A DNA stretch of 64,000 bases from Minisyncoccota bacterium (GTDB lineage Bacteria > Patescibacteriota > Minisyncoccia > JAHIHE01 > JAGLIN01), in assembly GCA_041661265.1 (NCBI GenBank), contig JBAZUT010000008.1, forward strand, positions 1,134 to 65,133. Direction: 5' to 3'. Below, in pieces: positions 3,788 through 63,424 of this stretch (its first letter is position 1; each line of letters opens with the position of its first letter). Below the pieces are notes generated by a model. The model saw nothing but the letters and a program-made list of their open reading frames with translations. It ran no database searches and was not told where the DNA came from. Position numbers and translations under genes: made by a program.

Positions 3788-6100
3788 ATGAACATAAATT
3801 TAAAAGAAAAAATAAAAAATATGATGCATTCTTTCAACTTTGGAAAAATCAAAGAAAGCGAAGTAACCGGAAAAAAGGGAAAGCATATTTCAGTTTTGAA
3901 GATGCTTTTTGTTTTTGTGTCCATGCTGGCCTTGCCTGTTCATATGGCAAATGCGGTATGGTACAAACCATGGACATGGACACTGAGGGGCGTTGGAGAA
4001 GAAATACTGGAGGCAATTTTATTCGGTTTTAACTTGATCGTCTATAATCTCGGCAACTTTGCCCTGAATATAGCCGGACAGCTGGTCCATTTTGGAGCGT
4101 GGCTCGTCGATCTCATGATGGACCAGGGAATATACAAGGCGGTTTTGGTTGATTCCACAGCCATCAAGATCGGATGGGAAACTATCAGGGATTTTTGCAA
4201 CATGTTTTTCATTTTTTTCCTGCTCATCGTAGCATTCGCAACAGTACTTCGGATCAGCGAATATAGCGCGAAAGTCATACTTCCGAAGTTTCTGATCGCG
4301 ATCTTTATGATCAATTTCAGCATGGAGATCACGAAGCTCGTGATCGATTTCGGACAGGTTTTTATGTATGAGATCAGGGGCTGGATGGGTGATTTTTCCG
4401 GAACGACGGGAGGAGGAAGCAGCCTCACTTCGATCGTGGATTATTTCAATGAATATTTCAATGCAAGTGCAACGAACATTACGGCAGATTCGGCCATAGC
4501 TATTCTTTTTGCGGCCGCCTATTCTTTCATGCTCGGATTCACCTATATCATGATGGCGGGATTCCTTCTTATCCGACTGCTGATGTTCGCTGTTCTGATG
4601 ATCCTCTCTCCTTTTGCCTTTTTCGCGAATATTTTTCCGGGGACAAGGCACTATTCCAGCGATTGGTGGAGATCCATAATGAAATATTCTCTTTTCGGTC
4701 CGATATTCATTTTCTTCGTTTTCATATCCGCGACCATGGCCTTTGAACTTACAAACAATTACAATCCTGCGGCAGTCGTTCCTGCCGGATATGCGCAGAT
4801 CGAAGCCGTGAAAGGACTCATCCCGAAGCTTATTCCGAATGTTATCGCGCTGATGATGCTTTGGATGGCAATTCCGATCACTCAGAAACTGGGAATTGCC
4901 GGTTCGAGCAGACTGATCGGCGGAACGCTCGGTCTTGGCACTGTGGCCATGGCAAGCTATGGCGCGACGAAGCTTGCAGGAGGATGGGGAAAGAAAGCGG
5001 TTGAAGCACCGGCGAGCAGGTTACATGCTTACGGTATGGGCCAGAACGGAAGATACAAAGCAGCGGTGGATAAATTAAGCGGCGGATTGAAAAAACTGCC
5101 CCTTGGCACAGGAAGAATATTCATTCAATACGAAGCTGACAAGGCCGTACAGAAAAAGGAAGATGTTGCAAAGCATCAGAAGATCATGGAAAATCTTTCC
5201 GACAAAGATAAGAAATCATATGTCGATAGCTTCTCGATCGATCGAAAAGCAAAAGCAGATGCTCAGCAGGCTATGTTTAATTTGCTTGCAAAGGATTCCG
5301 GCAAGGGTTTGACGGATGCAAGATTGCAGAAGATGGGTTATGAGAAAGAAGTGAACGGACAGCAGGTGTTTGATAAGAAGAAATTTGAAAGCGATTATAA
5401 TCGGGCAAAGGCTTATGGACATGACACGGGCACTTTGGAGACCTACAGGCCTGATATGTTGACGAAAGATGATGACATAAGGGAAAAAGTCAAAAAAGTT
5501 GTCCAGGATGGAAACTATAAGAACATAAAGAGCGATGCTCTCGCAAATGAGACCGTTGCTAAGGAATTGGAAGGATTGATTGGCAAGAAAAAATATGATG
5601 AATTTATAAACAACAAGTCACAAGAAGAAAAATCAAGCCTTTCAAAGCATAAAGAGAAAAAATTAGCAGTGGAATATGCAACGCTATCTCCTGCTGATTT
5701 ACAAAAAAAACAGGTTGAGATTGCAAGCCTTGCAAGTCCAGATGATAAAGTGGAAGCCATGAAACAGATGACGGGAGTTGTAAATGGTCAAATTCAATAT
5801 GCGCCAAACATCAACAACAGGCCGGTTGTTAATTTGGACGTTGTAAATGAAGTCATGGATAGCATGTCCAAGGATCAATTCCTTGATTTGAATAAAGATT
5901 TCTTTGAGGAATATGGGCACATGGTTTCAGATGCTAATATTGACCATATTGCCAAATTTGGCGATACGGAACAGCTTAAATCAATGAAAGAAGCGATTGT
6001 AAGGGCACAAGCAGGAACTAATAATTTTTATCGCGGAAATCAGCTGGTGGATGCTCAAAAATTAACAGATAGACTGAATAAAATAAATAGTAAAATATAA
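3788..6100 (+). CDS. VirB6/TrbL-like type IV secretion polytopic membrane protein with a long charged C-terminal extension
   Basis: About 8 predicted TM helices in residues 30-400, then a ~370-aa K/D/E-rich hydrophilic tail. Sits in an operon with PrgI-like and VirB4 genes. An extended -10 (tgttataat) lies at ~3674-3682. Confidence 0.45.
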   Translation: MNINLKEKIKNMMHSFNFGKIKESEVTGKKGKHISVLKMLFVFVSMLALPVHMANAVWYKPWTWTLRGVGEEILEAILFGFNLIVYNLGNFALNIAGQLVHFGAWLVDLMMDQGIYKAVLVDSTAIKIGWETIRDFCNMFFIFFLLIVAFATVLRISEYSAKVILPKFLIAIFMINFSMEITKLVIDFGQVFMYEIRGWMGDFSGTTGGGSSLTSIVDYFNEYFNASATNITADSAIAILFAAAYSFMLGFTYIMMAGFLLIRLLMFAVLMILSPFAFFANIFPGTRHYSSDWWRSIMKYSLFGPIFIFFVFISATMAFELTNNYNPAAVVPAGYAQIEAVKGLIPKLIPNVIALMMLWMAIPITQKLGIAGSSRLIGGTLGLGTVAMASYGATKLAGGWGKKAVEAPASRLHAYGMGQNGRYKAAVDKLSGGLKKLPLGTGRIFIQYEADKAVQKKEDVAKHQKIMENLSDKDKKSYVDSFSIDRKAKADAQQAMFNLLAKDSGKGLTDARLQKMGYEKEVNGQQVFDKKKFESDYNRAKAYGHDTGTLETYRPDMLTKDDDIREKVKKVVQDGNYKNIKSDALANETVAKELEGLIGKKKYDEFINNKSQEEKSSLSKHKEKKLAVEYATLSPADLQKKQVEIASLASPDDKVEAMKQMTGVVNGQIQYAPNINNRPVVNLDVVNEVMDSMSKDQFLDLNKDFFEEYGHMVSDANIDHIAKFGDTEQLKSMKEAIVRAQAGTNNFYRGNQLVDAQKLTDRLNKINSKI

Positions 6101-6882: not shown

Positions 6883-6958
6883 AATATATTTATAAGATAC
6901 AAGGACACAAGATACAATAACCAGACAATAATCAACAACCAAATTTCAATAATCAATT

Positions 6959-7324
6959 ATGCACGATTTTGATTTAGAAAGAAGAACAACTGAATTCGCG
7001 AAAAGAGTAGTTCGTTTATGCAGATCATTACCGAAAGATTCAATTAACAATAGATTAAGCGGACAGGTTGTCGGTTCGGCTGGTTCCGTCGGCGCAAATT
7101 ATCGTGAAGCAAATGATGCTTTGGGGAAAAAGGACTTTATTCTCAGGCTTAAAATAGCCAGAAAAGAAGCAAAGGAAACGATGCATTGGCTGGAACTGGT
7201 TGAAGAAGCGAATCCTGAGCTGAAACCAAGAATGGCAGAATTAAAACAAGAAGCAACTGAATTGAAGAATATTCTATCAGCAATAATCGGCAAAACGGTA
7301 AAAAATAACAATCCTGTTCGATAA
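6959..7324 (+). CDS. Four-helix-bundle protein (23S rRNA intervening-sequence protein / DGR Avd-like family)
   Basis: Family motif GSAGSVGANYREA. Flanked by short inverted repeats (6890-6935 vs 7340-7375). Confidence 0.6.
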   Translation: MHDFDLERRTTEFAKRVVRLCRSLPKDSINNRLSGQVVGSAGSVGANYREANDALGKKDFILRLKIARKEAKETMHWLELVEEANPELKPRMAELKQEATELKNILSAIIGKTVKNNNPVR

Positions 7325-7430
7325 TTGATCATTGAGATTTGTTTGTATCCTTGTAGCTTGGTTATTGTATCTTTACTTTTGAAGACATAAGCAATGAATT
7401 TAACGATATAACAATTTAACAATAGAATTT

Positions 7431-7883
7431 ATGCAGTACGGCGTACCGCAATTTATCGACGTTGAAGACAAGATAGTAGGTCCTTTTACCGGCAAACAAA
7501 CTCTGTATATGATGATCGGAGGAGGATTTTTGATCCTGATCTTCTCGTTCTTCACTCTGGGATTTTTTCTCGTCGCCGTTGTCATCATTCTTCCGCTTAC
7601 GCTGGTTTTCGCTTTCTATAAGCCGAAAGGCATCACCGTTGCCCAATATCTCTCGAATTTCATGAAGTTTTTCTCATCGAATCGTCTTTATGTCTGGAGG
7701 AGGGAGAATGAAGGAAGCTTTTTCAAAACAGTACAGAAGAAGAAAAAGGCTACCGTGGAAGTCGAGGCTAAGACTGTCACAAGAAGCAAGATCCGCGAAC
7801 TTGCCTGGGTTCTCGACACCAGCACTGCGGTGAGCGTTCCCTATGAGGCAAAAGAGAGGCCGGACGAAGCGGTGAGAAGATGA
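7431..7883 (+). CDS. PrgI family (VirB3-like) type IV secretion protein
   Basis: MQYGVPQFIDVEDKIVGPFTGKQTLYMM followed by two TM helices. This is the characteristic PrgI N-terminus and topology. Confidence 0.55.
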   Translation: MQYGVPQFIDVEDKIVGPFTGKQTLYMMIGGGFLILIFSFFTLGFFLVAVVIILPLTLVFAFYKPKGITVAQYLSNFMKFFSSNRLYVWRRENEGSFFKTVQKKKKATVEVEAKTVTRSKIRELAWVLDTSTAVSVPYEAKERPDEAVRR

Positions 7884-7892
7884 TTTTTGGCA

Positions 7893-8344
7893 ACTGAAAA
7901 ATGAAAAGCTAAAAATGAAAAACGACAGAGAAAAATTTAAAAATGAATTTAAGGCGCGAATCTACAACTTCATATTGAATCTGATAAAATTTATCGACCA
8001 CTTACCTTCCGACAGAGCTACGGATATAATCGCCAAACAGCTCCTCAGAAGCGGCACAAGCATCGGCGCAAACTATATCGAAGCGCAAGCGGCAAGCTCA
8101 AAGAAGGACTTTACTAACTTTTTCCACTATTCCTTAAAATCGGCCAATGAAAGCAAGTTCTGGATCGCGATCTTAAGAGATAGCAAAAAGGCTGGAAAAG
8201 AAGAGGCTGAAGCTTTATTGAAAGAGCTTATAGAAATTTCAAACATACTGGGCTCAAGCATTATCACGCTGAAGAACAAAAGATAGTCCATCTTATATAT
8301 AATATTTTTTCGTTTTTCATTTTAAATTTTAAATTTGAAATATG
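7893..8344. repeat. Direct repeat copy 1 (~450 bp) carrying a four-helix-bundle gene, bounded by 17-bp terminal inverted repeats TAAAAATGAAAAACGA
   Basis: Near-identical to 9019..9480. TIRs at 7909-7925 and 8310-8326. The copy ends in the ATG (atgtcaa) of the downstream gene. Confidence 0.8.
7915..8286 (+). CDS. Four-helix-bundle protein (23S rRNA IVS protein / Avd-like family), copy A
   Basis: LLRSGTSIGANYIEAQAASSKKDF...SKFWIAILRD. 99% identical to 9047..9418. Confidence 0.7.
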   Translation: MKNDREKFKNEFKARIYNFILNLIKFIDHLPSDRATDIIAKQLLRSGTSIGANYIEAQAASSKKDFTNFFHYSLKSANESKFWIAILRDSKKAGKEEAEALLKELIEISNILGSSIITLKNKR

Positions 8345-9016
8345 TCAACTCCTGAAAAAAAACCGGTTAAGGGTCTCAGCACCCAAAGATATCTTGAAAT
8401 AGCCGAGATAAAGGATAGCGTTGTCGTGATGAAAAACGGAAACTTGAGGGCTGTTCTCATGGTGTCCTCGATAAATTTCGCCTTGAAATCCATCGATGAG
8501 CAGGATGCGATCATCTATCATTTCCAAAGTTTTCTGAATTCTTTGGATTTTTCCATCCAGATCCTCATCAACTCAAGGAAGCTCAATATTGAGAATTATC
8601 TGGACGTTCTGAGAGAAACGGAGAAAAGGCAGACGAATGAGCTCCTGCGAATGCAGACCGCAAGCTATATCGAATACATCCAGGGGCTGGTCAAAATGGC
8701 GAACATTGTCAGCAAGACTTTTTATATCGTTGTTCCCTTCTCCGCCGCTGAAACGAAAGAAGGCGGGCTTTCAAAACTGAAAGCGTCTTCAACCGCGACA
8801 CAGATCATTTCCAGCAGGGAAGTTTTTGAAAAATATAGAGATCAGCTTTTTCAGAGGGTCGATCATATAATCGAGAATCTGAGCGGAACTGGGCTTCGAA
8901 TGACAATGCTTAACACGCAGGAACTTATTGAATTGTATTATAATCTCTATAACCCCGATCTCGCGGACAAGAAAGGGCTGGCCGACATCGAAGAACTTGA
9001 CCTTGCGGTGGAGTAA
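8342..9016 (+). CDS. VirB4 N-terminal-domain-like protein (CagE/TrbE/VirB4 N-domain-like), encoded separately from the ATPase
   Basis: Segment EIKDSVVVMKNGNLRAVLMVSSINFALKSIDEQDAIIYHFQSFLNSL resembles VirB4/TrbE N-domains. No Walker motifs. Assignment is tentative. Confidence 0.35.
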   Translation: MSTPEKKPVKGLSTQRYLEIAEIKDSVVVMKNGNLRAVLMVSSINFALKSIDEQDAIIYHFQSFLNSLDFSIQILINSRKLNIENYLDVLRETEKRQTNELLRMQTASYIEYIQGLVKMANIVSKTFYIVVPFSAAETKEGGLSKLKASSTATQIISSREVFEKYRDQLFQRVDHIIENLSGTGLRMTMLNTQELIELYYNLYNPDLADKKGLADIEELDLAVE

Positions 9017-9018
9017 AC

Positions 9019-9480
9019 TTACGTATTGAAAAATGAAAAGCTAAAAATGAAAAACGACAGAGAAAAATTTAAAAATGAATTTAAGGCGCGAATCTACAAC
9101 TTCATATTGAATCTGATAAAATTCATAGATAACCTGCCCTCCGACAGAGCTACGGATATAATCGCCAAACAGCTCCTCAGAAGCGGCACAAGCATCGGCG
9201 CAAACTATATCGAAGCACAAGCGGCAAGCTCAAAGAAGGACTTTACTAACTTTTTCCACTATTCCTTAAAATCGGCCAATGAAAGCAAGTTCTGGATCGC
9301 GATCTTAAGAGATAGCAAAAAGGCTGGAAAAGAAGAGGCTGAAGCTTTATTGAAAGAGCTTATAGAAATTTCAAACATACTGGGCTCAAGCATTATCACG
9401 CTGAAGAACAAAAGATAGTCCATCTTATATATAATATTTTTTCGTTTTTCATTTTAAATTTTAAATTTGAAATATGTCAA
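9019..9480. repeat. Direct repeat copy 2 (~450 bp) carrying a four-helix-bundle gene, TIR-bounded
   Basis: Near-identical to 7893..8344. TIRs at 9041-9057 and 9442-9458. Confidence 0.8.
9047..9418 (+). CDS. Four-helix-bundle protein (23S rRNA IVS protein / Avd-like family), copy B
   Basis: ORF 9026 uses a TTG start; the ATG at 9047 gives the same 123-aa protein as copy A (one H to N difference). Confidence 0.7.
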   Translation: MKNDREKFKNEFKARIYNFILNLIKFIDNLPSDRATDIIAKQLLRSGTSIGANYIEAQAASSKKDFTNFFHYSLKSANESKFWIAILRDSKKAGKEEAEALLKELIEISNILGSSIITLKNKR

Positions 9481-11333
9481 TTTTCAGCAGTTTGCTGCCA
9501 TCCGGAAATAAGGCAAAAGAAAATAATTCCGCTTCGCCGAAGAAAGGAACCGCAACAGGCGAATCGAGCGCTGTGATCGCTTCGGAGAGGATATACAAGC
9601 AGGGACTTACGACCGTAAAGGACATCATCGCTCCCGCCGCTTTCAGGATCGAAGCGGATTATGTGATGATAAACCGGAAAATGGCGGCGACGTTCTTCGT
9701 TTATGCCTATCCGAGATATTTGCAGACGAATTGGTTCTCCCCGATCGTCAATCTTGACGCGACATTCGACATTGCGATGTTCATCCATCCGCAGAGCAGC
9801 GCGGAGATATTGAGGCATCTTCTCAAGGTTGTAACGCAGATCCAGTCGCAGATCTCCATGAACGAGGAAAGAGGAATGGTCAGGGATCCGATCCTCGAGA
9901 CCGCATATCAGGACGTTGAGAATCTCCGAGATGACCTCCAGCAGGGTATCGAGCATTTTTTCCAGTTCGGGCTCTATATGACAATCTATGGCGATACGAA
10001 AGACGAACTGATGAAGGTTGAGACGCAGATAGAGGCGATCCTTGAGGCAAAGCTCATCTATGTGAAGCCGGCGATAATGCAAATGGAGGAGGCTTTCAAT
10101 TCGACGCTTCCGCTGGCGAGCGACAAGCTCATGATCGTGAACAATATGAACACTTCTCCCCTTTCCACGACTTTCCCGTTCGTTTCGAGCGATCTCACTT
10201 CGAATCAGGGCATTCTCTATGGGATAAACAGGCACAACAACAGTCTGGTGCTTTTTGACAGGTTTTCGATGGAAAATGCGAACATGGTCATTTTCGCAAA
10301 GTCCGGCGCAGGAAAAAGCTATACGGTCAAATTGGAAATACTGCGAAGTTTGATGGTTGAAACGGATGTCATTGTCATAGACCCTGAAGATGAATATAAG
10401 CATCTTTGCGAGACCGTCGGCGGCACTTTCATGAGGATCTCTCTTTCGGCGAAGCATCACATTAATCCTTTTGATCTTCCGACTGCGCTTGAGGATGAAG
10501 CTCCCGCGGACGTGCTTCGTACGGCGATCGCCAATGTCTCCGGACTTCTCAAGGTTATGCTCGGAAAGCTTTCCGCAGAGGAAGACTCGATCTTGGACAA
10601 GGCCATTGCGGAAACCTATGCCATAAAAGACATCACTCCGGAAGCGGAATTCGCGAAGCTTGAACCTCCGACAATGACAGATCTGCAGATGGTGCTTGAG
10701 AATATGAGCGGCGCAGAAAGCCTCTCGACCAGGATCAAGAAATACACTGAAGGAACTTTTGCAGGATTTTTGAACCACAGGACGAATGTCAGCGTGGACA
10801 AAGGCCTCGTCGTTTTCAACATCAGGGACATGGAAGAAGAGCTCCGTCCGGTCGCCATGTATCTCATTCTGCACTATATCTGGACGCTGATCAGGTCCGA
10901 AAGGAAAAGAAGGATGCTTGTGGTCGATGAGGCGTGGTGGATGATGCAGCACGAAGACGCGGCCTCATTTCTCTTTTCGATCGCAAAACGATGCAGGAAA
11001 TATTTCTTGGGCCTCACGACGATCACCCAGGACGTCACCGACTTCATGGGTTCGAGATATGGAAAGCCGATCGTCACCAATTCCTCGATCCAGCTTCTCC
11101 TGAAGCAGTCCCCTGCCGCCATCAAGGTCATCGTGGACACATTCTATCTTACGGATGAGGAGAAGTTCTTGCTATTGGAAAGCAATGTCGGAGAAGGGAT
11201 ATTCTTTGCAGGGGCAAAGCGCGCCGCGATCAAAGTGGTCGCTTCATATTCCGAGGATCAGATCATAACTTCCGATCCCGCCCAGCTCCTTGAGATCGAA
11301 AAGGCAAAGAAAGAACTGGAAGATGTGGCGTAA
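9474..11333 (+). CDS. virB4: VirB4/TraE/PrgJ-type type IV secretion ATPase
   Basis: Gram-positive-type N-terminus KDIIAPAAFRIEADYV...YPRYLQTNWFSPIVNLD. Walker A is FAKSGAGKSY, Walker B is MLVVDEAWWMM. Confidence 0.85.
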   Translation: MSIFSSLLPSGNKAKENNSASPKKGTATGESSAVIASERIYKQGLTTVKDIIAPAAFRIEADYVMINRKMAATFFVYAYPRYLQTNWFSPIVNLDATFDIAMFIHPQSSAEILRHLLKVVTQIQSQISMNEERGMVRDPILETAYQDVENLRDDLQQGIEHFFQFGLYMTIYGDTKDELMKVETQIEAILEAKLIYVKPAIMQMEEAFNSTLPLASDKLMIVNNMNTSPLSTTFPFVSSDLTSNQGILYGINRHNNSLVLFDRFSMENANMVIFAKSGAGKSYTVKLEILRSLMVETDVIVIDPEDEYKHLCETVGGTFMRISLSAKHHINPFDLPTALEDEAPADVLRTAIANVSGLLKVMLGKLSAEEDSILDKAIAETYAIKDITPEAEFAKLEPPTMTDLQMVLENMSGAESLSTRIKKYTEGTFAGFLNHRTNVSVDKGLVVFNIRDMEEELRPVAMYLILHYIWTLIRSERKRRMLVVDEAWWMMQHEDAASFLFSIAKRCRKYFLGLTTITQDVTDFMGSRYGKPIVTNSSIQLLLKQSPAAIKVIVDTFYLTDEEKFLLLESNVGEGIFFAGAKRAAIKVVASYSEDQIITSDPAQLLEIEKAKKELEDVA

Positions 11334-11396
11334 AAAAACTCAAAAGTAAAAACTCAAAAGTTAAAATTGCAATTGAAAATTAAAAAGTGATAATTT

Positions 11397-11503: not shown

Positions 11504-11782
11504 ATGAATAGATATTTTGTATATATAGCTTCAAACAGCAGAAATACAGTTCTATATACCGGTATCACAAATGACATAAATCGAAGAATGTTTCAGCACA
11601 AAAACAAGCTGGTAAAAGGTTTCACAGAAAAATATAATGTTGACAAGTTAGTATATTGCGAAGAGTTTAATTCGCCAGGAGAAGCAATCTCCGCCGAAAA
11701 GAAAATTAAAGGATGGACAAGAAAGAAAAAGATAGATTTGATCAAAAGCATTAATCCCGAATTCGCAGACTTGTTGATATAA
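11504..11782 (+). CDS. GIY-YIG nuclease family protein (small UPF0213/YhbQ-like)
   Basis: YFVYIASNSRNTVLYTGITNDINRRMFQHKN...EEFNSPGEAISAEKKIKGWTRKKK is a canonical GIY...YTG motif. Confidence 0.8.
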   Translation: MNRYFVYIASNSRNTVLYTGITNDINRRMFQHKNKLVKGFTEKYNVDKLVYCEEFNSPGEAISAEKKIKGWTRKKKIDLIKSINPEFADLLI

Positions 11783-12059: not shown

Positions 12060-13031
12060 ATGGAAAGTGGAAGAATAAAAAGTGGTGTATCCAGAATTGC
12101 CAAAAATGAAAGTGCTAATCGAGTAGCGAATGCAACTCCTTTTGTTGGTGGAGCTAAAAGAATGGCAGAGAGTGCAGCGGGAAAAACATTGGCCGGAGAG
12201 AAATTATCAGGCAGGGATAGGTGGAAACATGGCGCTGGAGGAGCAGCTGATCTGGCTTTGGATTTTACCGGAATTGGAGAGGTTGAGAAAGGCGCAAAAA
12301 TGGCATATATTGGAAAAAAGATAGCAAGCGGTCTGGAAGAAAATACAAAAAAGGAAGCCACAAGAGAAATTAAAGACCAAGTCATTAAAAGAGGCATTGC
12401 GGCTGATAATTATCGTATCAAAAGCCAAGCCGGCAGAAATGAGGAAGCGCAAAGGATAAAAAGCGAAGCTCAAAGAGAAGCCGAGAGGCATATGAATCAT
12501 GAATTCCAAAAATCGGCAAGAATGAGCGGAGTGAAAGGGAGAGTGGCGTCAAAAATCGCCAGCCGGGGCGTATCGGAAGCAGCCTATCAAATTGCCTCCA
12601 GGTTGAGCGAAAAGGCGAAACAAGGGGGGCATTGGGCGGTGATCGTTTTTATTGTAACTTTACTGATAGCTATAATAGTTGACGCGTTAGATATTGTAGG
12701 CACTCTTCTTATTGAAACGATCCTAGGCTGGCTTATTATTTTTCTGATTAACACACTTCTTTCATTGATCATAAATATTTTTTGGATGTTGCTTGCAGGT
12801 GGCGGACATAGCAAGTTTTTTTGGAAGATTCTTGTCAGGTATATCATATTTGGATTGATACTTGATTCCATCCCAATTATAGAATTATTTCCATTTACGG
12901 TTTTTATGGTATGCTGGAACTGGTATGATTATAGCAAAGAAAGAAGTGAAGCGAAGCAAGAATTGAAAAGATTTTCAAAAGTTTATGCAAAAACGGGAGA
13001 AATAAAAGGACAATCCATGAAATATGCTTAG
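12060..13031 (+). CDS. Hypothetical membrane protein (charged N-terminal half, 4 TM helices in C-terminal half) bracketed by the two GIY-YIG elements
   Basis: ORF with GHWAVIVFIVTLLIAIIVDALDIVGTLLIETILGWLIIFLINTLLSLIINIFWMLLAGG. No recognisable family. Confidence 0.4.
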   Translation: MESGRIKSGVSRIAKNESANRVANATPFVGGAKRMAESAAGKTLAGEKLSGRDRWKHGAGGAADLALDFTGIGEVEKGAKMAYIGKKIASGLEENTKKEATREIKDQVIKRGIAADNYRIKSQAGRNEEAQRIKSEAQREAERHMNHEFQKSARMSGVKGRVASKIASRGVSEAAYQIASRLSEKAKQGGHWAVIVFIVTLLIAIIVDALDIVGTLLIETILGWLIIFLINTLLSLIINIFWMLLAGGGHSKFFWKILVRYIIFGLILDSIPIIELFPFTVFMVCWNWYDYSKERSEAKQELKRFSKVYAKTGEIKGQSMKYA

Positions 13032-13852: not shown

Positions 13853-14851
13853 ATGTTTATCAGAAAACGCACCTTGCTCCTGCTTCTCCTTGTTGCATCT
13901 GCCACATTTGCTTACCCTGCTTTTGCCCAATATACCCCAATGGTCAGGATTCCCGGGCTCACCGCCGCGGGAAGCATAAATCTTTCAATGTATCTGGTGG
14001 GATTATATAATTTTATGGTCAGTATTGTGGGAATAGTTGCTGTCATGATGATGATCGTGGGAGGCATGAGATATATAACTGCTGCGGGAAGTTCAACGGC
14101 GATTAGCGATGCAAAAGATATTATCTCAAATGCCGTAGCCGGTCTCGTTATTGCCATTTTTGCCTGGATCATTGTTGCCGCAATAAATCCCGACGTCTTG
14201 TTCATAAAGAAACCCGGATCGGGATTCAAAAATGCTTCATATTTATCTTGTACGAAGCAATATACGGCCGCGATATGCAAGTGCAATGATGACGTGGGTT
14301 TGGGAGTTTTTGCATCTCCGACCGCCTGCAATGATGCATGCAAAGCCGGAAATCATTGCGGCGGTTTGGTGAATAGTTGTATCAGGGATGGAGTGAATGA
14401 AACGACCAGTCCGAAATTTAATACAGCTCCGAATAACGGAAAATGTTTATGTGCTAATGGAGTGGATGTTGTGCCTATACCGCCAGCTACATGTCAAGCG
14501 ACTTGCGCTATAGCAAATTGTATAAAGGCTGATGCAAGAATTGGAAATACAGGAATTACAGGTTTTGTCTCAGGAGTGGTAGATCAAAAAAGGACAACTA
14601 TATACATAAAAAATCCTTGCACGGATTCTTTGGCATTTGATGCTTACAAAACATTTGCTGTAAATCCCTATACGTGCAGTTGGGATTTTGAAAGCGACGG
14701 CACACCTGACAATCCCTCGTGTTTTACAGGATTTTGTCCGGTAAGTGGCGTCTTTATCGCTGGAACTTATACAGCAACGCTTACAGTGACTGACTCTGTT
14801 ACTGGAGCAAGTTCTGCGGACACTGTTATTTATGAAGCAATATATCCATAA
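13853..14851 (+). CDS. VirB2/TrbC-like pilin core with a ~210-aa Cys-rich C-terminal extension (PKD-like tail)
   Basis: Signal peptide, then a pilin-like core (INLSMYLVGLYNFMVSIVGIVAVMMMIVGGMRYITAAGSS...AGLVIAIFAWIIVAAI). Downstream are at least 14 Cys residues and a TGFCPVSGVFIAGTYTATLTVTDSVTG segment. Confidence 0.5.
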   Translation: MFIRKRTLLLLLLVASATFAYPAFAQYTPMVRIPGLTAAGSINLSMYLVGLYNFMVSIVGIVAVMMMIVGGMRYITAAGSSTAISDAKDIISNAVAGLVIAIFAWIIVAAINPDVLFIKKPGSGFKNASYLSCTKQYTAAICKCNDDVGLGVFASPTACNDACKAGNHCGGLVNSCIRDGVNETTSPKFNTAPNNGKCLCANGVDVVPIPPATCQATCAIANCIKADARIGNTGITGFVSGVVDQKRTTIYIKNPCTDSLAFDAYKTFAVNPYTCSWDFESDGTPDNPSCFTGFCPVSGVFIAGTYTATLTVTDSVTGASSADTVIYEAIYP

Positions 14852-17818: not shown

Positions 17819-18661
17819 TCAGACCAGATATTTTTTCATTATTTCTTTGTAATTTTTGCAGAAATCAGTCACGAAAGATTGGTCGGGAAAGAAATTCTGA
17901 AGATCATATGCGAGCTTTCTTTCATCGACCTCCTTTTCGATTTTGTTTTTCAGGACTTGTTTCAGTTCATTCTCGTCTTTGATGGAGAAAGCCTTTTCAA
18001 GGACAGCAAAGTCAGGACTGATGCCTTTGCTGAGATACCAGAATAGGTCATAGAAGTCGCGTCCCTTTATGTCGATAACATTGTTTTTTCCCTTGAACCA
18101 TTTTCGTCCCAGTATCGCCATGATCTTTCCGGTCATCAGAAATTTTAGGGTGTAATTTTTGGCAAGAAAATTGAAGCCGAATGAAGAGACTGGGGAAAGC
18201 TCGGTTTCAAATACTTCGAATTGGCTGATCTCCGGCTCGATTTTGACATAGAGAAAATCGCTTTTTTCTCCATAAATAAGACCAAGATCTTTCAGGATCG
18301 GGAATTTGAGATAGAGCCTGTTTTTTCCCTGGACCCGGAAGGAAGGAACTATAAGGAAATTGTTTTCAAAATATGCAGAAAGTGCCGTGCCCATTTTTTC
18401 CAGATCCAATGTCCGGAAATCAGATTCTTCGAGGTCAAAGTCCAGGTCTTCGGAAAGTCGCGACAAGCCATAGCAAATGCGAAGGCACGATCCGCCGGTG
18501 AAGATGAAGTTTTTATATTCTTTGCTGTTATATATATAGCTCAGAACTGGAAATTGCAGGACCTCTTTAAGGAAGTTTGCGATCACAAAATCAGGAAGCC
18601 CGGCTCTCTTTTTCTCCTGCACCAGGGTTTTCATGGTCTCTTTAAGCATAATATTGTTCAT
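17819..18661 (-). CDS. abiEii: AbiEii/AbiGii family nucleotidyltransferase toxin (type IV toxin-antitoxin / abortive infection)
   Basis: FIFTGGSCLRICYGLSRLSEDLDFDL matches the DUF1814 GGtaL...R.SeDlDf motif. Confidence 0.7.
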   Translation of the reverse strand: MNNIMLKETMKTLVQEKKRAGLPDFVIANFLKEVLQFPVLSYIYNSKEYKNFIFTGGSCLRICYGLSRLSEDLDFDLEESDFRTLDLEKMGTALSAYFENNFLIVPSFRVQGKNRLYLKFPILKDLGLIYGEKSDFLYVKIEPEISQFEVFETELSPVSSFGFNFLAKNYTLKFLMTGKIMAILGRKWFKGKNNVIDIKGRDFYDLFWYLSKGISPDFAVLEKAFSIKDENELKQVLKNKIEKEVDERKLAYDLQNFFPDQSFVTDFCKNYKEIMKKYLV

Positions 18662-19280
18662 TAATGAGTTTAAATAGTGTATTCATGCGTTTGTTGTTGC
18701 ATATTTTTATGTATTCTTCCATTTTTTTGATGTCGGAAGCGGAAATATTTTCCCAGTTGAGGCGCAGATCTTCCAGCGCTTCTCGGTTTATTTCACGCTT
18801 GCTCAAAAAGCGAAGATAGAGAAAATCAAACAGAGCTTTTGCTTTTTCGGCTTCAAGAACGGGCGCGCCTTGAAAATATTTGACGGAATATCCGCAAAAA
18901 AGCTTCGGGCTTATTGAGTAATAGCGGAAGCTTCCGAGCTTGTTCACAATTTCCCTTCCTGTTTTTACGGTCATTGAAGTCAGGGCGTTGGCCGGTTCGC
19001 TCAGGATCTGATATTTGGAAAGCGTATATTCCATTGAGAGATAGGATGGCATCACCATTTGATTGGCGATGTATTCGAGATAGGAGTTCTTGTCTCCTTC
19101 CATGCGGAATCGGTCGCTTAGCACGTATAGGCCGTTTTTCAGGCCAATGAGTTTCCCGTTTTTAAGCCAATATTTGATGTTGGCATTCAGCGATTCAGGG
19201 TCGCTTTCAAGCGATCGAAGCGTATTTTTGCTGAAAACAAGGAACTTTTGGCTTATTTTCTCAAAATCATTATAGTTCAT
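18642..19280 (-). CDS. abiEi: Putative AbiEi-like antitoxin / transcriptional regulator
   Basis: Lies immediately upstream of and overlaps the AbiEii gene by 20 nt. Size is about 210 aa. Assigned mainly by operon context. Confidence 0.45.
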   Translation of the reverse strand: MNYNDFEKISQKFLVFSKNTLRSLESDPESLNANIKYWLKNGKLIGLKNGLYVLSDRFRMEGDKNSYLEYIANQMVMPSYLSMEYTLSKYQILSEPANALTSMTVKTGREIVNKLGSFRYYSISPKLFCGYSVKYFQGAPVLEAEKAKALFDFLYLRFLSKREINREALEDLRLNWENISASDIKKMEEYIKICNNKRMNTLFKLINEQYYA

Positions 19281-28266: not shown

Positions 28267-30348
28267 CTATATGCCTTTGTGTGTAAGGTTTATCCTGCCC
28301 TGAGAATCGATCTCTTTCACTTTGACCGCAATGACATCGCCAATCTTTACGACATCTTCAACCCTGTTCACTCTGGTCGGGGCAAGTTCGGAAATATGCA
28401 CGAGGCCTTCTTGGCCGGGGAGTATCTCAACGAAAGCTCCGAAGTTCATTATTCTGGTGACCTTTCCCTGGAAAAGTTCTCCGGGAGCGACTTCGCGCAC
28501 TATATTTTTGATCCAGGCGGCGGCTTTTATTGCAGCTTCGGCATTTTTTGAGGTTATCATAACGAGTCCGTCATCTTCAATATCGATGGTCACTCCGGTG
28601 TCGGCAATTATTTCGTTTATAACTTTTCCGCCAGGCCCGATGACATCGCGGATCTTGTCAGTGTTGATCCTGAAGGAGGTTATTCTGGGAGCATAAACAG
28701 AGAGGTCTTTTCTGGATTCCGGTATGGCCTTTTTCATTATCTCCATTATCTTGAGCCTTGCGTCTTTAGCTTTTGCAAGGGTTTTTTCGATTATTTCAAC
28801 GGTTATTCCTTCGATCTTTACATCAAGTTGGATGGCGGTCACTCCATTTTCTGTTCCCGCTATCTTGAAATCCATGTCTCCATGATGATCTTCCGGTCCC
28901 TGAATATCGGTTAGTATGGTATAATCTTTTTCATCTTTCATGATGAGCCCCATGGCAATTCCGGCGGCGGCTCTTGGGATCGGTACGCCGGCATCCATGA
29001 GCGCGAGAGAGCTTCCGCAAACGCTTGCCATCGAGCTTGATCCGTTCGATGAAAGGGTTTCAGAAACGAGCCTGATCGTATATGGGAAACTTTCCTTGTC
29101 CGGTATCAGGGGTTCGATAGCTTTTTCAGCCAATGCTCCGTGTCCGATCTCGCGGCGTCCGGGTCCTCGCATCGGAGCGACTTCTCCCACTGAGAATGCC
29201 GGGAAAGAATAGTGATGCATGAATCTTTTTGTCCCTTCTTCTTCCATGCCGTCGAGGGTCTGTTCGTCTCCCGGAGCTCCGAGAGTGGCGATTGTGAGGG
29301 CCTGCGTCGCTCCCCTGTTGAAAAGTCCCGTTCCGTGAGTCCTTGGAAGTATTCCGACACTTGCGCTGATCGGCCTCAGTTCGTCCATTTTTCTTCCGTC
29401 AGGCCTCTTCTTTTCATCGAGTACATATTTCCGAAGCAGAGAGTCCATTTCTTCTTCAACAATGAGATCCGCTATTTTCATGATGTCTTCGCCGAATTTT
29501 TCTACGGCAAAAGTCTTAAGCTCTTCGTTAAGTTTCGTCTTGATCTCGGCTTGCTTGTCCTTATCTTTCTCGGTCATCAGCGCGTTGAGCTTTCCATGGA
29601 GGAATTTCTTGATCTCGTCTTCCGTTTTCTCATCGGCCTGAAGAACCTTGACCGCCTTTTTCTTTTTGCCTATTTTTGAAATTATTTCATTTTGAAAATC
29701 GATCACGTCCTTAATCGTGTCTTCGATGGCTTTCACCGCTTCGACGATATCGGATTCCGGAACTTCTTTTCCTTCCGCTTCGATCATATTCACCCTGCCG
29801 ATCTTTCCGGTCACTATTATGTTGTACTGGCTTTTCTTGCGCTGTTCGTAGCTGGGATTTATGACGATCTTTTCGTCAACCTTTGCTGCTCGAACCGCTC
29901 CGACCGGTCCGTCCCACGGTATGTCGGAAATTGCCAGAGCCGCAGAAGCTCCGATCACCGCCAAATAATCCGGATCGGTCTCCTGGTCGACAGAAAGAAC
30001 TGTGAGAACGACTTGGATGTCGTTCCTGGTTCTTCCATTGAAAAGCGGTCTGATGGTTCTGTCCACAATACGTCCGGAAAGTATCGCTTCGTCGGATGGG
30101 CGCCCTTCTCTTTTGATGAATCTGCTTCCTTTTATCTTTCCCGCAGCGTACAGTCTTTCTTCATAGTCGCACATGAGGGGGAAATAATTCATCCCCTCTC
30201 GGACGTGTCCGCTCATTGTCGCCGTTGCCAGGATTACAGTGTCGCCATACTGGATGGTTACCGATCCATTGGCTTGTCCGGCCAGCTTGCCGGCTTCGAT
30301 CGTCATAGTTCGTCCCGCGATCTCCCTTTTAAATGTCTTGATGTCCAT
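28267..30348 (-). CDS. pnp: Polyribonucleotide nucleotidyltransferase (PNPase)
   Basis: Two RNase PH domains plus KH and S1. C-terminal S1 segment is GELFQGKVTRIMNFGAFVEILPGQEGLVHISELA. Confidence 0.95.
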   Translation of the reverse strand: MDIKTFKREIAGRTMTIEAGKLAGQANGSVTIQYGDTVILATATMSGHVREGMNYFPLMCDYEERLYAAGKIKGSRFIKREGRPSDEAILSGRIVDRTIRPLFNGRTRNDIQVVLTVLSVDQETDPDYLAVIGASAALAISDIPWDGPVGAVRAAKVDEKIVINPSYEQRKKSQYNIIVTGKIGRVNMIEAEGKEVPESDIVEAVKAIEDTIKDVIDFQNEIISKIGKKKKAVKVLQADEKTEDEIKKFLHGKLNALMTEKDKDKQAEIKTKLNEELKTFAVEKFGEDIMKIADLIVEEEMDSLLRKYVLDEKKRPDGRKMDELRPISASVGILPRTHGTGLFNRGATQALTIATLGAPGDEQTLDGMEEEGTKRFMHHYSFPAFSVGEVAPMRGPGRREIGHGALAEKAIEPLIPDKESFPYTIRLVSETLSSNGSSSMASVCGSSLALMDAGVPIPRAAAGIAMGLIMKDEKDYTILTDIQGPEDHHGDMDFKIAGTENGVTAIQLDVKIEGITVEIIEKTLAKAKDARLKIMEIMKKAIPESRKDLSVYAPRITSFRINTDKIRDVIGPGGKVINEIIADTGVTIDIEDDGLVMITSKNAEAAIKAAAWIKNIVREVAPGELFQGKVTRIMNFGAFVEILPGQEGLVHISELAPTRVNRVEDVVKIGDVIAVKVKEIDSQGRINLTHKGI

Positions 30349-31924: not shown

Positions 31925-32860
31925 ATGTCAATAGATATCATAAGAAAGCTGAAAACCGAATTTCTTGAATATCTGGAAATTGAAAAGAACAGATCTCAGC
32001 TCACCATCAGGAACTATGATCACTATCTTGAGTATTTCTTGGATTGGGCCGAAGTGAAGCGCGCGGAGGAAATAAATGCTGATCTGGTGAGAAAATTCAG
32101 GCTTTTTTTGAATCGCAGGAAGGAAAATAACCAGAAGGAGCTGAAAAAGGTGACGCAGGATTATTATATAATAGCCATCAGAGGCTTTTTGAACTATCTT
32201 GCAAAGCGCGACATTAAGACGCTTCCGAGCGAAAAGATCGAACTTGGAAAAACACAAGACAGGGAGGTTGAGTTCCTTGAGCCTTTGGAGGTCGAGAAGC
32301 TTCTTTCCGTTGTTGCTGGCGAGGATCTTTCGAGTGCGCGGGACCGGGCCATACTGTCGCTTCTTTTCTCAACCGGGCTTCGAGTTTCCGAGCTTACTGG
32401 GCTGAATCGGGACAGTATGAATTTCGAAAGCGGAGAGTTTCCGGTCAGGGGAAAAGGCGGGAAGATCAGGCTGGTTTTCATCTCAGATAGCGCAAAAAAA
32501 ATAATCCGAGATTACCTGGAAAAGAGAAAGGACGTCGAGCCCGCTCTTTTTGTGAGGATCAGGGATAGAAAGTCCAAGGAGAAGGATAACGAAGCAAAAG
32601 GCGCGGGTTTGAGACTGACCCCGAGAAGCGTGCAGAGGATCGTCAGGAAATATGCCATAAGGGCGGGAATAGTGAAGAAAGTGACTCCGCATACTCTGAG
32701 GCACAGCTTTGCAACGGATCTTCTTTTCAACGGCGCGGATATCCGGAGCGTGCAGACCATGCTCGGACATTCAAGCATAACGACGACCCAGATATATACG
32801 CATATAACGAACAAGCAACTCAAGGATGTGTATAGAAAATATCACTCCAAAGGCGGATGA
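31925..32860 (+). CDS. xerC: Site-specific tyrosine recombinase, XerC/XerD family
   Basis: C-terminal catalytic region HTLRHSFATDLLFNGADIRSVQTMLGHSSITTTQIYTHI, of R...HxxR...Y type. Confidence 0.85.
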   Translation: MSIDIIRKLKTEFLEYLEIEKNRSQLTIRNYDHYLEYFLDWAEVKRAEEINADLVRKFRLFLNRRKENNQKELKKVTQDYYIIAIRGFLNYLAKRDIKTLPSEKIELGKTQDREVEFLEPLEVEKLLSVVAGEDLSSARDRAILSLLFSTGLRVSELTGLNRDSMNFESGEFPVRGKGGKIRLVFISDSAKKIIRDYLEKRKDVEPALFVRIRDRKSKEKDNEAKGAGLRLTPRSVQRIVRKYAIRAGIVKKVTPHTLRHSFATDLLFNGADIRSVQTMLGHSSITTTQIYTHITNKQLKDVYRKYHSKGG

Positions 32861-33041
32861 GCAGATCAGTCCAAAAGACTTGATTATTAACGAAAACTGG
32901 TGTATTGTTTTAAGGTGATAGAAATTTAAAATTTAAAAATAAAAGTGAAAAATGACAGTTTAAAATGTAAAAATATCAACATTTTTATTTTTTTTGCATT
33001 GTCATTTTGATCTTTGAATTTTGATCTTTGAATTTTCATAT

Positions 33042-33124
33042 GCAGGCGTGGCGGAATTGGCATACGCGCATGGCTTAGGACCATGTTCTTCGGAGTGTGG
33101 GTTCGACTCCCACCGCCTGCACCA
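33042..33124 (+). tRNA. tRNA-Leu (anticodon TAG), class II, CCA encoded
   Basis: Hand-folded: acceptor stem GCAGGCG/CGCCTGC, anticodon stem-loop CATGG-CTTAGGA-CCATG, T-arm GTGGG-TTCGACT-CCCAC, then ACCA. Confidence 0.85.
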
Positions 33125-63269: not shown

Positions 63270-63424
63270 AATAGAAAAATCAAAATTTAAAAATCAAAAT
63301 GCAAAATGAATGTGTTTTAAAAAATTTATAATTTTTAAAACTCCTAAATTTTGATCTTTGATTTTTGCACTTTGAATTATATCGGGATTTATTGAGTAAA
63401 GTATTATCTGTCGACAAAATGTTT

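Follow-up and report, generated by a model that had tools for sequence, protein, structure and literature searches.

Two neighbouring spacers of a Patescibacteria type IV secretion operon hold copies of a probable intervening-sequence-type cassette

The type IV secretion system (T4SS) operon of a Minisyncoccota bacterium (assembly GCA_041661265.1) contains two nearly identical repeats, cassette A between the prgI and trsD genes and cassette B between trsD and virB4, each of which encloses a gene for a small four-helix-bundle (4HB) protein. They lie within a stretch of 64,000 nucleotides (positions 1,134 to 65,133 of contig JBAZUT010000008.1), hereafter the window, to which all coordinates refer unless a locus is named. 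Cassettes A and B are probably two copies of a selfish element of about 445 bp which is of the intervening sequence (IVS) type and lives in the short spacers of co-transcribed Patescibacteria genes. The cassette is a discrete, conserved, sense-oriented and horizontally turning-over unit whose protein and arms are both under selection, and one copy has recently been duplicated between neighbouring spacers of the T4SS operon, 1.1 kb apart. The PF05635 protein and the TrsD/VirB4 arrangement are already known, the new aspect being that IVS-type units, consisting of an open reading frame (ORF) in a hairpin, reside in mRNA and tRNA operons.

Cassettes A (7895..8348) and B (9027..9480) form direct repeats of 454 bp on the plus strand and are identical at 446 of 454 positions (98.2%, blastn alignment). 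The original prediction, made from the letters of the window, had recognised this repeat pair with its 4HB genes correctly, but put the identity at ~99% and the coordinates 2-8 nt off. At the level of the cassette family, the boundaries of element A are located at about 7893-8336. Its left arm (7893-7940) is detected by nhmmer with an E value of 4e-8, and the last 12 nt of the repeat (GAAATATGTCAA), among them the native trsD start, already lie past the conserved right arm. The 4HB gene of cassette A (7915..8286, plus strand) encodes 123 amino acids matching PF05635 (E 2.8e-19), TIGR02436 (E 1.2e-24) and the PDB entry 2rld (E 1.8e-17), and its first eight codons belong to the left arm. Its counterpart in cassette B (9047..9418, plus strand; 123 amino acids, PF05635 E 2e-19) differs by one H to N substitution and seven synonymous changes. 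With 69.7, 70.2 and 64.7 bits the 4HB genes of A, B and a third cassette of the same operon, C, all exceed the Pfam cut-off for PF05635 of 33.8 bits, and scores of 86.7 and 84.4 bits were reached against a TIGR02436 cut-off of 24. Seven of the eight mismatches between A and B are packed into a 16-bp patch (7992-8007, corresponding to 9124-9139), six of them synonymous and one causing the H to N change. Because of this clustering, and because the patch is mosaic relative to the related metagenome loci L006 and L007, it points to a short stretch converted from a third allele.

The identity between the two cassettes stops right after ATGTCAA, which constitutes the first 7 nt of trsD (orf224, starting at 8342) and of virB4 (orf619, starting at 9474), exactly as had been predicted. 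The right arm of cassette A (8287..8341, plus strand) doubles as the 55-nt leader of trsD, and that of cassette B (9419..9473, plus strand) as the leader of virB4. The further claim that the cassettes supply the start codon of the downstream gene does not hold. In L171, which is devoid of an A-type cassette, trsD begins with ATGTCAACTCCTG, and virB4 begins with ATGTC[A/C]ATTTT in L171, L006 and L007. Since both genes keep their ATGTC[A/C]A starts with or without the cassette, ATGTCAA represents a native microhomology.

The cassette family was sampled in 80 metagenome loci with close 4HB relatives, and conservation was calculated on 65 related cassettes. In Patescibacteria the family unit is ~445 bp long and consists of a 4HB ORF between imperfect inverted arms of ~45 nt. 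The left end is conserved as ...AATTGAAAATTAAAAAATCAAA continued by ATGGAAAATGACAATGTAAAATTT, and the right end, directly after the stop codon, as TTTTAACATTTTAAATTGTCATTTTGATTTTTGATATTTACATTTTAAATT, which is separated by 0-12 nt from the ATG of the next gene. The majority base accounts for a fraction of 0.79 in the left arm (22-nt left flank) and 0.72 in the right arm as opposed to 0.31-0.41 in the outer flanks, while third codon positions are conserved to 0.84 in the first eight codons and to 0.55 in the rest of the ORF. The arms exceed both the flanks and the third positions of the ORF, which argues that they are selected at the nucleotide level and have sharp boundaries; the 4HB protein in turn is under purifying selection, as indicated by conservation values of 0.79, 0.90 and 0.55 for codon positions 1, 2 and 3. 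Taking the longest neighbouring ORF, the upstream neighbour is co-oriented with the cassette in 68 of 70 cases and the downstream neighbour in 64 of 67. The upstream gap typically measures 15-60 nt and the gap between the 4HB stop and the ATG of the next gene clusters at 51-67 nt. The neighbours are unrelated housekeeping genes including grpE, a ROK kinase gene, gatB, secD/secF, GT2/GT1, pilB, pilC, ruvB and a PAPS reductase gene, and an Rfam search of 20 related loci returned tRNAs only and no rRNA. ORF-less hairpins, with the left arm joined straight to the right arm, follow several family cassettes, and nested copies occur in spacer 1 of L010 and in L104, L110 and L160. Among individual loci, L103 (2382-2980) has a cassette between two co-oriented tRNA genes, L140 (1193-3834) has one between secD and secF, and L154 (1600-4002) has three 4HB genes in consecutive spacers within 2.4 kb, as in the window.

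As the original prediction recognised, the cassettes share the architecture of the IVSs of rRNA, in which a PF05635 ORF lies between complementary arms; rRNA IVSs are excised by RNase III and are sporadically distributed (PMC4990558), and 23S_rRNA_IVP ORFs are present in rRNA insertions of the Candidate Phyla Radiation (CPR; PMC11270868). Like the IVSs of Leptospira, Coxiella burnetii and Brucella and the 16S and 23S insertions of CPR bacteria, the cassettes measure ~430-450 nt and encode a homologous 4HB protein, their complementary flanks surround an ORF that is placed sense in a highly transcribed unit, and they are present in sporadic strains with some of the ORFs decayed (PMC4990558, PMC11270868). 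Unlike rRNA IVSs, the cassettes are located in spacers of protein-coding or tRNA genes and not in rRNA helices, their arms are conserved in sequence and show a 7-nt periodicity with the left arm taking in the start codon and the first eight codons, and several copies and types are found in neighbouring spacers of one operon.

Complementary flanks that enclose the ORF, as in IVSs, are found in cassette C, in most cassettes of the T4SS operon and in the A-type family, and are weak in A and B themselves. Cassette C (6909..7373, plus strand), which the coordinates of the original prediction had left out, is a diverged 4HB cassette that separates orf260 from prgI. Its 4HB gene (6959..7324, plus strand; 121 amino acids, PF05635 E 1e-17) is enclosed by a stem of ~50 bp (6909-6966 with 7316-7373) that closes exactly at the ATG and TAA of the ORF. 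This stem folds with -44.8 kcal/mol (z -8.2) and forms a duplex of -46.1 kcal/mol (z -8.1), another fold calculation giving a z score of -3.2. The flanking duplexes of other cassette types in the T4SS operon range from -41 to -48 kcal/mol with z scores of -6 to -8. In cassette A a perfect complement of 14 nt is formed by AAAATGAAAAACGA at 7912-7925 and TCGTTTTTCATTTT at 8310-8323 (15 of 16 positions with the outer base), set in by 17 nt from the left end and by 25 nt from the right; the inverted motif that had been described as terminal and 16-17 bp long is therefore real but shorter and internal. Folding of the inverted-repeat pair, which had been proposed as a check, thus yields a pronounced stem for cassette C and one at chance level for A and B. 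The A/B stem is credible because the family cassettes conserve both arms and the arms co-vary, its own energy being no better than chance. Across the family, the two arms match as complements at ~77% of positions along 45-60 nt. After RNAalifold had given a null result, a register was set by eye that has a 7-nt bulge holding the start codon and hence leans the pair counts towards itself; in it 77.4% of the cells pair compared with 43-58% in slid controls. The arms contain 88 double-change cells against 62 in shuffles (0 of 500 shuffles), and correlated changes include AAAATGACA/TGTCATTTT against AAAACGACA/TGTCGTTTT.

Several results weigh against the explanation as an IVS-type element. The A/B stem comprises 14 AU-rich base pairs, the arms-only fold reaches -14.9 kcal/mol with a z score of -1.07 (29 of 200 shuffles equal it) and the whole-cassette A/B fold has a z score of -0.10. 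RNAalifold returned no consensus structure on 46 family arm pairs, and no excess of G.U over A.C was found among the arm mismatches (105 vs 131, p 0.10), so that nothing favours complementarity at the RNA level over the DNA level. No mobility enzyme was found for the cassettes, no target-site duplication was seen in 80 loci and no clean junction between filled and empty sites was obtained, since the whole spacer differs in every comparison, even against L171. The two-copy state occurs in one assembly only. Cleavage by RNase III, finally, is a feature of rRNA IVSs that is carried over to the cassettes purely by analogy.

In view of the weak A/B stem, the lack of a consensus fold and the missing G.U excess, a role of the arms at the DNA level as terminal inverted repeats (TIRs) stays a serious rival, if a rather unlikely one. 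According to this explanation the cassette is a DNA transposon-like unit whose arms are read by a recombinase in trans or by the 4HB protein, RNA pairing is incidental, and the ORF-less hairpins are derivatives resembling miniature inverted-repeat transposable elements (MITEs). The imperfect arms of ~45 nt that are conserved across the family are what is expected of a DNA transposon or MITE, and it is their sequence and not merely their complementarity that both arms conserve. The absence of a consensus fold and of a G.U over A.C asymmetry, the nested copies (L010 spacer 1; L104, L110, L160), the local duplication 1.1 kb away and the ORF-less arm-only copies in the window and in many loci fit this explanation as well. 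In the window two such hairpins with A-type arms look like arm-only derivatives of the A-type cassette. The first (32922..33035, plus strand; nhmmer E 6e-5 and 8e-7) folds with -28.3 kcal/mol (z -4.0) and ends 7 nt before a tRNA-Leu gene (33042-33124), and the second (63276..63378, plus strand) folds with -22 kcal/mol (z -4.4). However, there is no transposase or recombinase within or beside the cassettes and no detectable target-site duplication, a sense orientation of ~97% is unexpected for ordinary TIR transposons, and the homologous rRNA IVSs are known as elements that act at the RNA level (PMC4990558). A weak match to the A-type arm is also present at 11338-11383.

Whatever their sequence family, the arms of every cassette type examined consist of 7-nt units in tandem, the unit being 8 nt long in one type. 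Examples of such units are AAAAATC, AGTATCT, CTTAATA, GTAAATC and CCAATAT, and in the A-type left arm an extra heptad bears the start codon. The base autocorrelation at lag 7 amounts to 0.60-0.63 in A-type arms and 0.52-0.93 in other types, compared with 0.24 in the ORF body. Periodic arms are located at 7893-7940, 8287-8341 and 6909-6966 in the window, and at 5093-5130 in L010, 3763-3830 in L014, 1093-1210 in L169 and 990-1107 in L168. As solved relatives of the 4HB protein form pentameric toroids (PMC4990558), one idea is that the heptads could serve as iterated binding sites for the 4HB protein.

Comparison with related strains shows that the cassettes come and go while the host genes remain. 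The nearest host, L171 (trsD 90% identical at the nucleotide and 99% at the amino acid level, virB4 92% at the nucleotide level), is without an A-type cassette in both spacers, having a different 4HB gene between prgI and trsD and a 129-nt ORF-less spacer between trsD and virB4. The situation is similar in L001 (TrsD 90% identical in amino acids) and L168 (92%), which both carry a different 4HB type in the first spacer, the second one being ORF-less in L001 (132 nt) and occupied by an ORF-less hairpin in L168 (118 nt). A-type cassettes are found in the trsD-virB4 spacer of L006 (88-89% nucleotide identity, host genes 83%) and L007 (85%, host genes 76-78%), whose prgI-trsD spacers hold no A-type cassette. 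Third positions of the 4HB ORF are 76.6% identical between the window and L006 compared with 60.9% for trsD and 65.2% for virB4, and 66.9% identical between the window and L007 compared with 50.4% for trsD. The 4HB third positions are thus more alike than those of the flanking genes, which implies that the cassette is younger than the divergence of its hosts. Likewise, cassette similarity does not track host-gene similarity, so that cassettes are mobile or swapped between strains, and their sporadic presence among strains suggests horizontal transfer as it does for IVSs.

The A position of the A-type cassette is unique to the window genome and the B position is common to L006 and L007; given this and the 98% identity between the copies, the simplest explanation is that B was recently copied to the A position, 1.1 kb farther upstream. 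It is very improbable that the second copy arose as an error of metagenome assembly. An A-type cassette between prgI and trsD is indeed seen in one 83.6-kb contig only, and related short contigs often break at cassette repeats, but 8 positions distinguish the two copies, and the sequences to the left and right of each are unique. Moreover, assemblers collapse repeats and do not invent them, and other independent assemblies (L003/L004/L005, L171, L154) also have paired elements in their spacers.

Both spacers are short in many other strains. The prgI-trsD spacer measures 17-60 nt in many species and the trsD-virB4 spacer 26-42 nt in L012, L013, L015, L018, L020 and L030, which is the ancestral-looking state. 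Where the spacers are filled, their content varies: L010 and L169 have one 4HB type between prgI and trsD and a second, different one between trsD and virB4, and L007 also holds different cassette types in its two spacers. One cassette type occupies the first spacer in L002 and the second in L010, L022 and L085. The 4HB gene in the prgI-trsD spacer of L002 is frameshifted, and decayed 4HB copies are present in L002 and L047. All 4HB genes found in the T4SS operon across loci lie on the operon strand. In L003 a ~310-nt GC-rich palindromic element resides in the prgI-trsD spacer and a second copy, 95% identical, in the trsD-virB4 spacer. This element lacks a 4HB gene, has a core of ...TGTCATTGCGAGGA...GCAATGACA and occurs in T4SS spacers of other strains, its sites being L003 4691-5000 and 5673-5993, L008 4673-4968, L010 3700-3900 and spacer 2 of L017; in L010 it sits inside an A-type hairpin, nested in the loop.

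The two spacers of one strain resemble each other in L003, L021, L171 and L170. An improbable alternative builds on this resemblance and regards the cassettes as domesticated regulatory modules of the T4SS, which would equalise the expression of trsD and virB4 through identical leaders and perhaps processing sites. The ~45-60 nt preceding the trsD and virB4 starts are near-identical within the strain in the window and in the four loci just named, and 7 of 35 loci score above the 95th percentile of between-locus comparisons where 1.75 would be expected. However, this applies to a minority of loci, only 3 of 35 exceeding the 99th percentile, the spacers of most species are short and unrelated, and the cassette family is also found in unrelated operons. 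The decayed 4HB genes of L002 and L047 and the different cassette types in the two spacers of L007, L010 and L169 likewise speak against a shared regulatory function. Leaders do move from gene to gene within the operon: the 25 nt directly before prgI in the window (7406-7430) match the 25 nt directly before trsD in L006 (12-36) at 25 of 25 positions, and variants of AACAATTTAACAATAGAATTT are found ahead of trsD in L008, L016, L020, L025 and L030.

If the cassettes are IVS-type elements, they would have no promoter of their own and would depend on read-through transcription of the operon. They would be transcribed together with the host operon because no terminator-like site was found inside them in a scan. 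By analogy with rRNA IVSs, the arms would then pair in the transcript and RNase III would cut them. This would part the messages of prgI, trsD and virB4, and the downstream gene would keep the right arm as its leader, AU-rich and lacking a Shine-Dalgarno (SD) motif. Such a leader would suffice, as an SD motif (GGAG, GAGG or AGGA) is present upstream of only 9 of 52 long ORFs in the window and most leaders are AU-rich. A role of the cassette as supplier of a ribosome-binding site was considered and rejected as needless on the same count. For the duplication itself, two routes are conceivable: a local transposition, or an ectopic gene conversion tract that ended within the native ATGTCAA microhomology. 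The best sigma-70-like match of the region, TTGACA-N18-TAAAAT (11 of 12 positions), is located on the minus strand at 8348-8319 and 9480-9451; it arises where the ATGTCAA start is read on the opposite strand, and its direction is back into the respective cassette. The best matches of the promoter scan are antisense and are probably due to chance in AT-rich DNA.

The function of the IVS/S23p four-helix bundle and the spread of IVSs have been standing questions since the 1990s, and the cassettes offer a route to the function of the protein. In Patescibacteria the ORF-in-hairpin unit is a common guest of ordinary mRNA and tRNA operons; its arms are conserved and 7-nt-periodic, it is strictly sense-oriented, it has derivatives without the ORF, and it turns over fast. 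IVSs would then look like general transcript-embedded selfish elements instead of a curiosity of rRNA. A more far-reaching proposal, which we consider unlikely as it stands, is that PF05635 cassettes are unrecognised autonomous mobile elements embedded in transcripts, of which rRNA IVSs are the special case that happened to be noticed first. The pentameric 4HB protein would bind the heptad arms as double-stranded RNA or as a DNA hairpin and either drive copying into new spacers and hairpin loops or control excision, without a canonical transposase, nuclease or reverse transcriptase. No gene for any of these three enzymes was found in or beside the cassettes of the 64-kb window. For the annotation of CPR genomes it follows that long 'intergenic' regions in conserved operons are often such elements, and that their repeats break assemblies.

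The cassettes can be set against other known systems. The bAvd proteins of diversity-generating retroelements (PF05635/cd16375) form pentamers of four-helix bundles and bind nucleic acid (PMC10053308), and the cassette protein belongs to the same superfamily; PF22296 (bAvd) is flagged on the 4HB proteins of L001 and L169. Unlike bAvd, the cassettes stand alone between housekeeping genes and have neither a reverse transcriptase nor template and variable repeats beside those examined. No reverse transcriptase was detected among about 35 window ORFs scanned, and 20 related cassettes adjoin housekeeping genes. Like MITEs and the repetitive extragenic palindromic (REP) and bacterial interspersed mosaic (BIME) elements, the cassettes are short AT-rich inverted-repeat units that vary between strains and have scattered ORF-less copies and nested copies. 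Unlike these, the full-length cassette encodes a 4HB protein and not a transposase or RAYT (REP-associated tyrosine transposase), is strongly sense-oriented and shows no target-site duplication. Free-standing homing-endonuclease genes create 'genes in pieces' in phages, for instance split nrdA and DNA polymerase genes. The cassettes are reminiscent of these cases in that a small mobile ORF lies between the halves of a protein that is single elsewhere, but they have no nuclease domain, and the split of VirB4 predates the cassette and exists without it. The open-access literature on 4HB or IVS cassettes outside rRNA yielded only papers on rRNA IVSs, the Avd proteins of diversity-generating retroelements and CPR T4SSs, and no account of IVS-type 4HB cassettes in spacers of mRNA or tRNA operons, of conserved arms or of heptad periodicity.

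The gene upstream of cassette B, trsD (orf224, 8342..9016, plus strand), encodes the N-terminal part of VirB4 as its own polypeptide, as the original prediction had suspected. Alignment to VirB4 N-domains, the check proposed for this, succeeded through NCBIfam: orf224 matches VirB4_plasma at positions 105-233 of 894 (E 1e-11) and CD1110-type VirB4 at positions 11-128 of 752. The match to the TrsD model NF041427 (TrsD/TraD) has an E value of 6.6e-8 and, at 32.6 bits, falls under the curated cut-off of 200 bits, and a PDB sequence search with TrsD gave no match. Its 6862 homologues are almost all free-standing proteins of 221-226 amino acids, all with a precomputed PF26593 'TraC-like' assignment. 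The ATPase body is encoded by virB4 (orf619, 9474..11333, plus strand; P-loop_TraG E 1.8e-26), which matches conju_CD1110 (E 1.3e-105, profile positions 177-730 of 752) and is colinear with residues 177-752 of CD1110-type VirB4. Both are covered colinearly by a fused protein of 797 amino acids, P0382, of which residues 2-216 correspond to orf224 (39% identity, E 2e-50) and residues 226-791 to orf619 (53% identity). It is encoded directly after prgI in L172 (544-2937; GCA_964615945.1), near dnaA, rnpA and yidC, and is the only fused TrsD-VirB4 form among the 150 best representatives.

The original prediction left it open whether VirB4 is naturally encoded as two polypeptides or was split by insertion of a cassette, and the first of these is correct. 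The search for an unsplit VirB4 in homologous loci retrieved the single fused form, while the order prgI-trsD-virB4 is kept with trsD as a separate ORF in 80 of 80 species-representative loci, most of which have short, cassette-free spacers, and the pair is published: TrsD has been reported in 2,221 Patescibacteria assemblies, its gene, which mostly adjoins virB4, being essential in Southlakia epibionticum (PMC12102498). That orf224 and orf619 go back to a single virB4 which was split by a cassette, with a new start provided for the downstream half, has next to no probability. The fused P0382 with its prgI-virB4 context does exist in GCA_964615945.1 and the repeat identity spans the ATG of both genes, but the two ORFs are separate in the close relatives L001, L168, L170 and L171, and also in loci without a cassette in the spacer (L001, 132 nt; L168, 118 nt; L171, 129 nt; L012, L013 and L015, 26-27 nt). 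The same N-termini (MSTPEKK..., MSI...) and ATGTC[A/C]A starts are furthermore found without the cassette, and these cassette-free two-gene loci rule the split out. The two-polypeptide VirB4 is real, old and already known, and the cassettes are unrelated to it. A TrsD-like gene of ~220 codons upstream of virB4 and downstream of prgI/virB3 is likewise found in the TrsD/TrsE systems of the pGO1 type (MPF-FATA) and in the Patescibacteria T4SS, where the published gene order (virB6-like, prgI, trsD, virB4, pilin) is the same as in the window (PMC12102498). Apart from the cassettes in the spacers there is no material difference from the published system, and that paper makes no mention of 4HB genes (PMC12102498). 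For the T4SS itself nothing changes, TrsD plus VirB4 being the normal published arrangement.

The operon in the window runs in the order VirB6-like gene (3788-6100), orf260, prgI/virB3-like gene (7431..7883, plus strand; PrgI profile E 1e-9), orf224 and orf619, with a T4SS pilin gene (13853-14851) farther along. A small gene for a GIY-YIG nuclease follows virB4 in the window (11504-11782, 92 amino acids) and in L168 (3006-3338, 110 amino acids) and is possibly another mobile passenger of the T4SS operon. Between this gene and the pilin gene, positions 12060-13031 encode a 323-amino acid protein with a hydrophobic C-terminal half and a weak match to PT-TG (Pre-toxin TG) at an E value of 8e-4, below the cut-off. 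PADLOC gave no match for the 4HB, GIY-YIG or PT-TG-like proteins, and an Rfam scan of the window detected two tRNAs only and no rRNA. An integrase gene of the XerC/D type (31925-32860) lies beside the ORF-less hairpin and tRNA-Leu mentioned above and has no linkage to the cassettes. Elsewhere in the window are an AbiEii toxin gene on the minus strand (17819-18661) with an overlapping upstream ORF (18642-19280), a PNPase gene (28267-30348) and a large glycosylation cluster at 34-58 kb.

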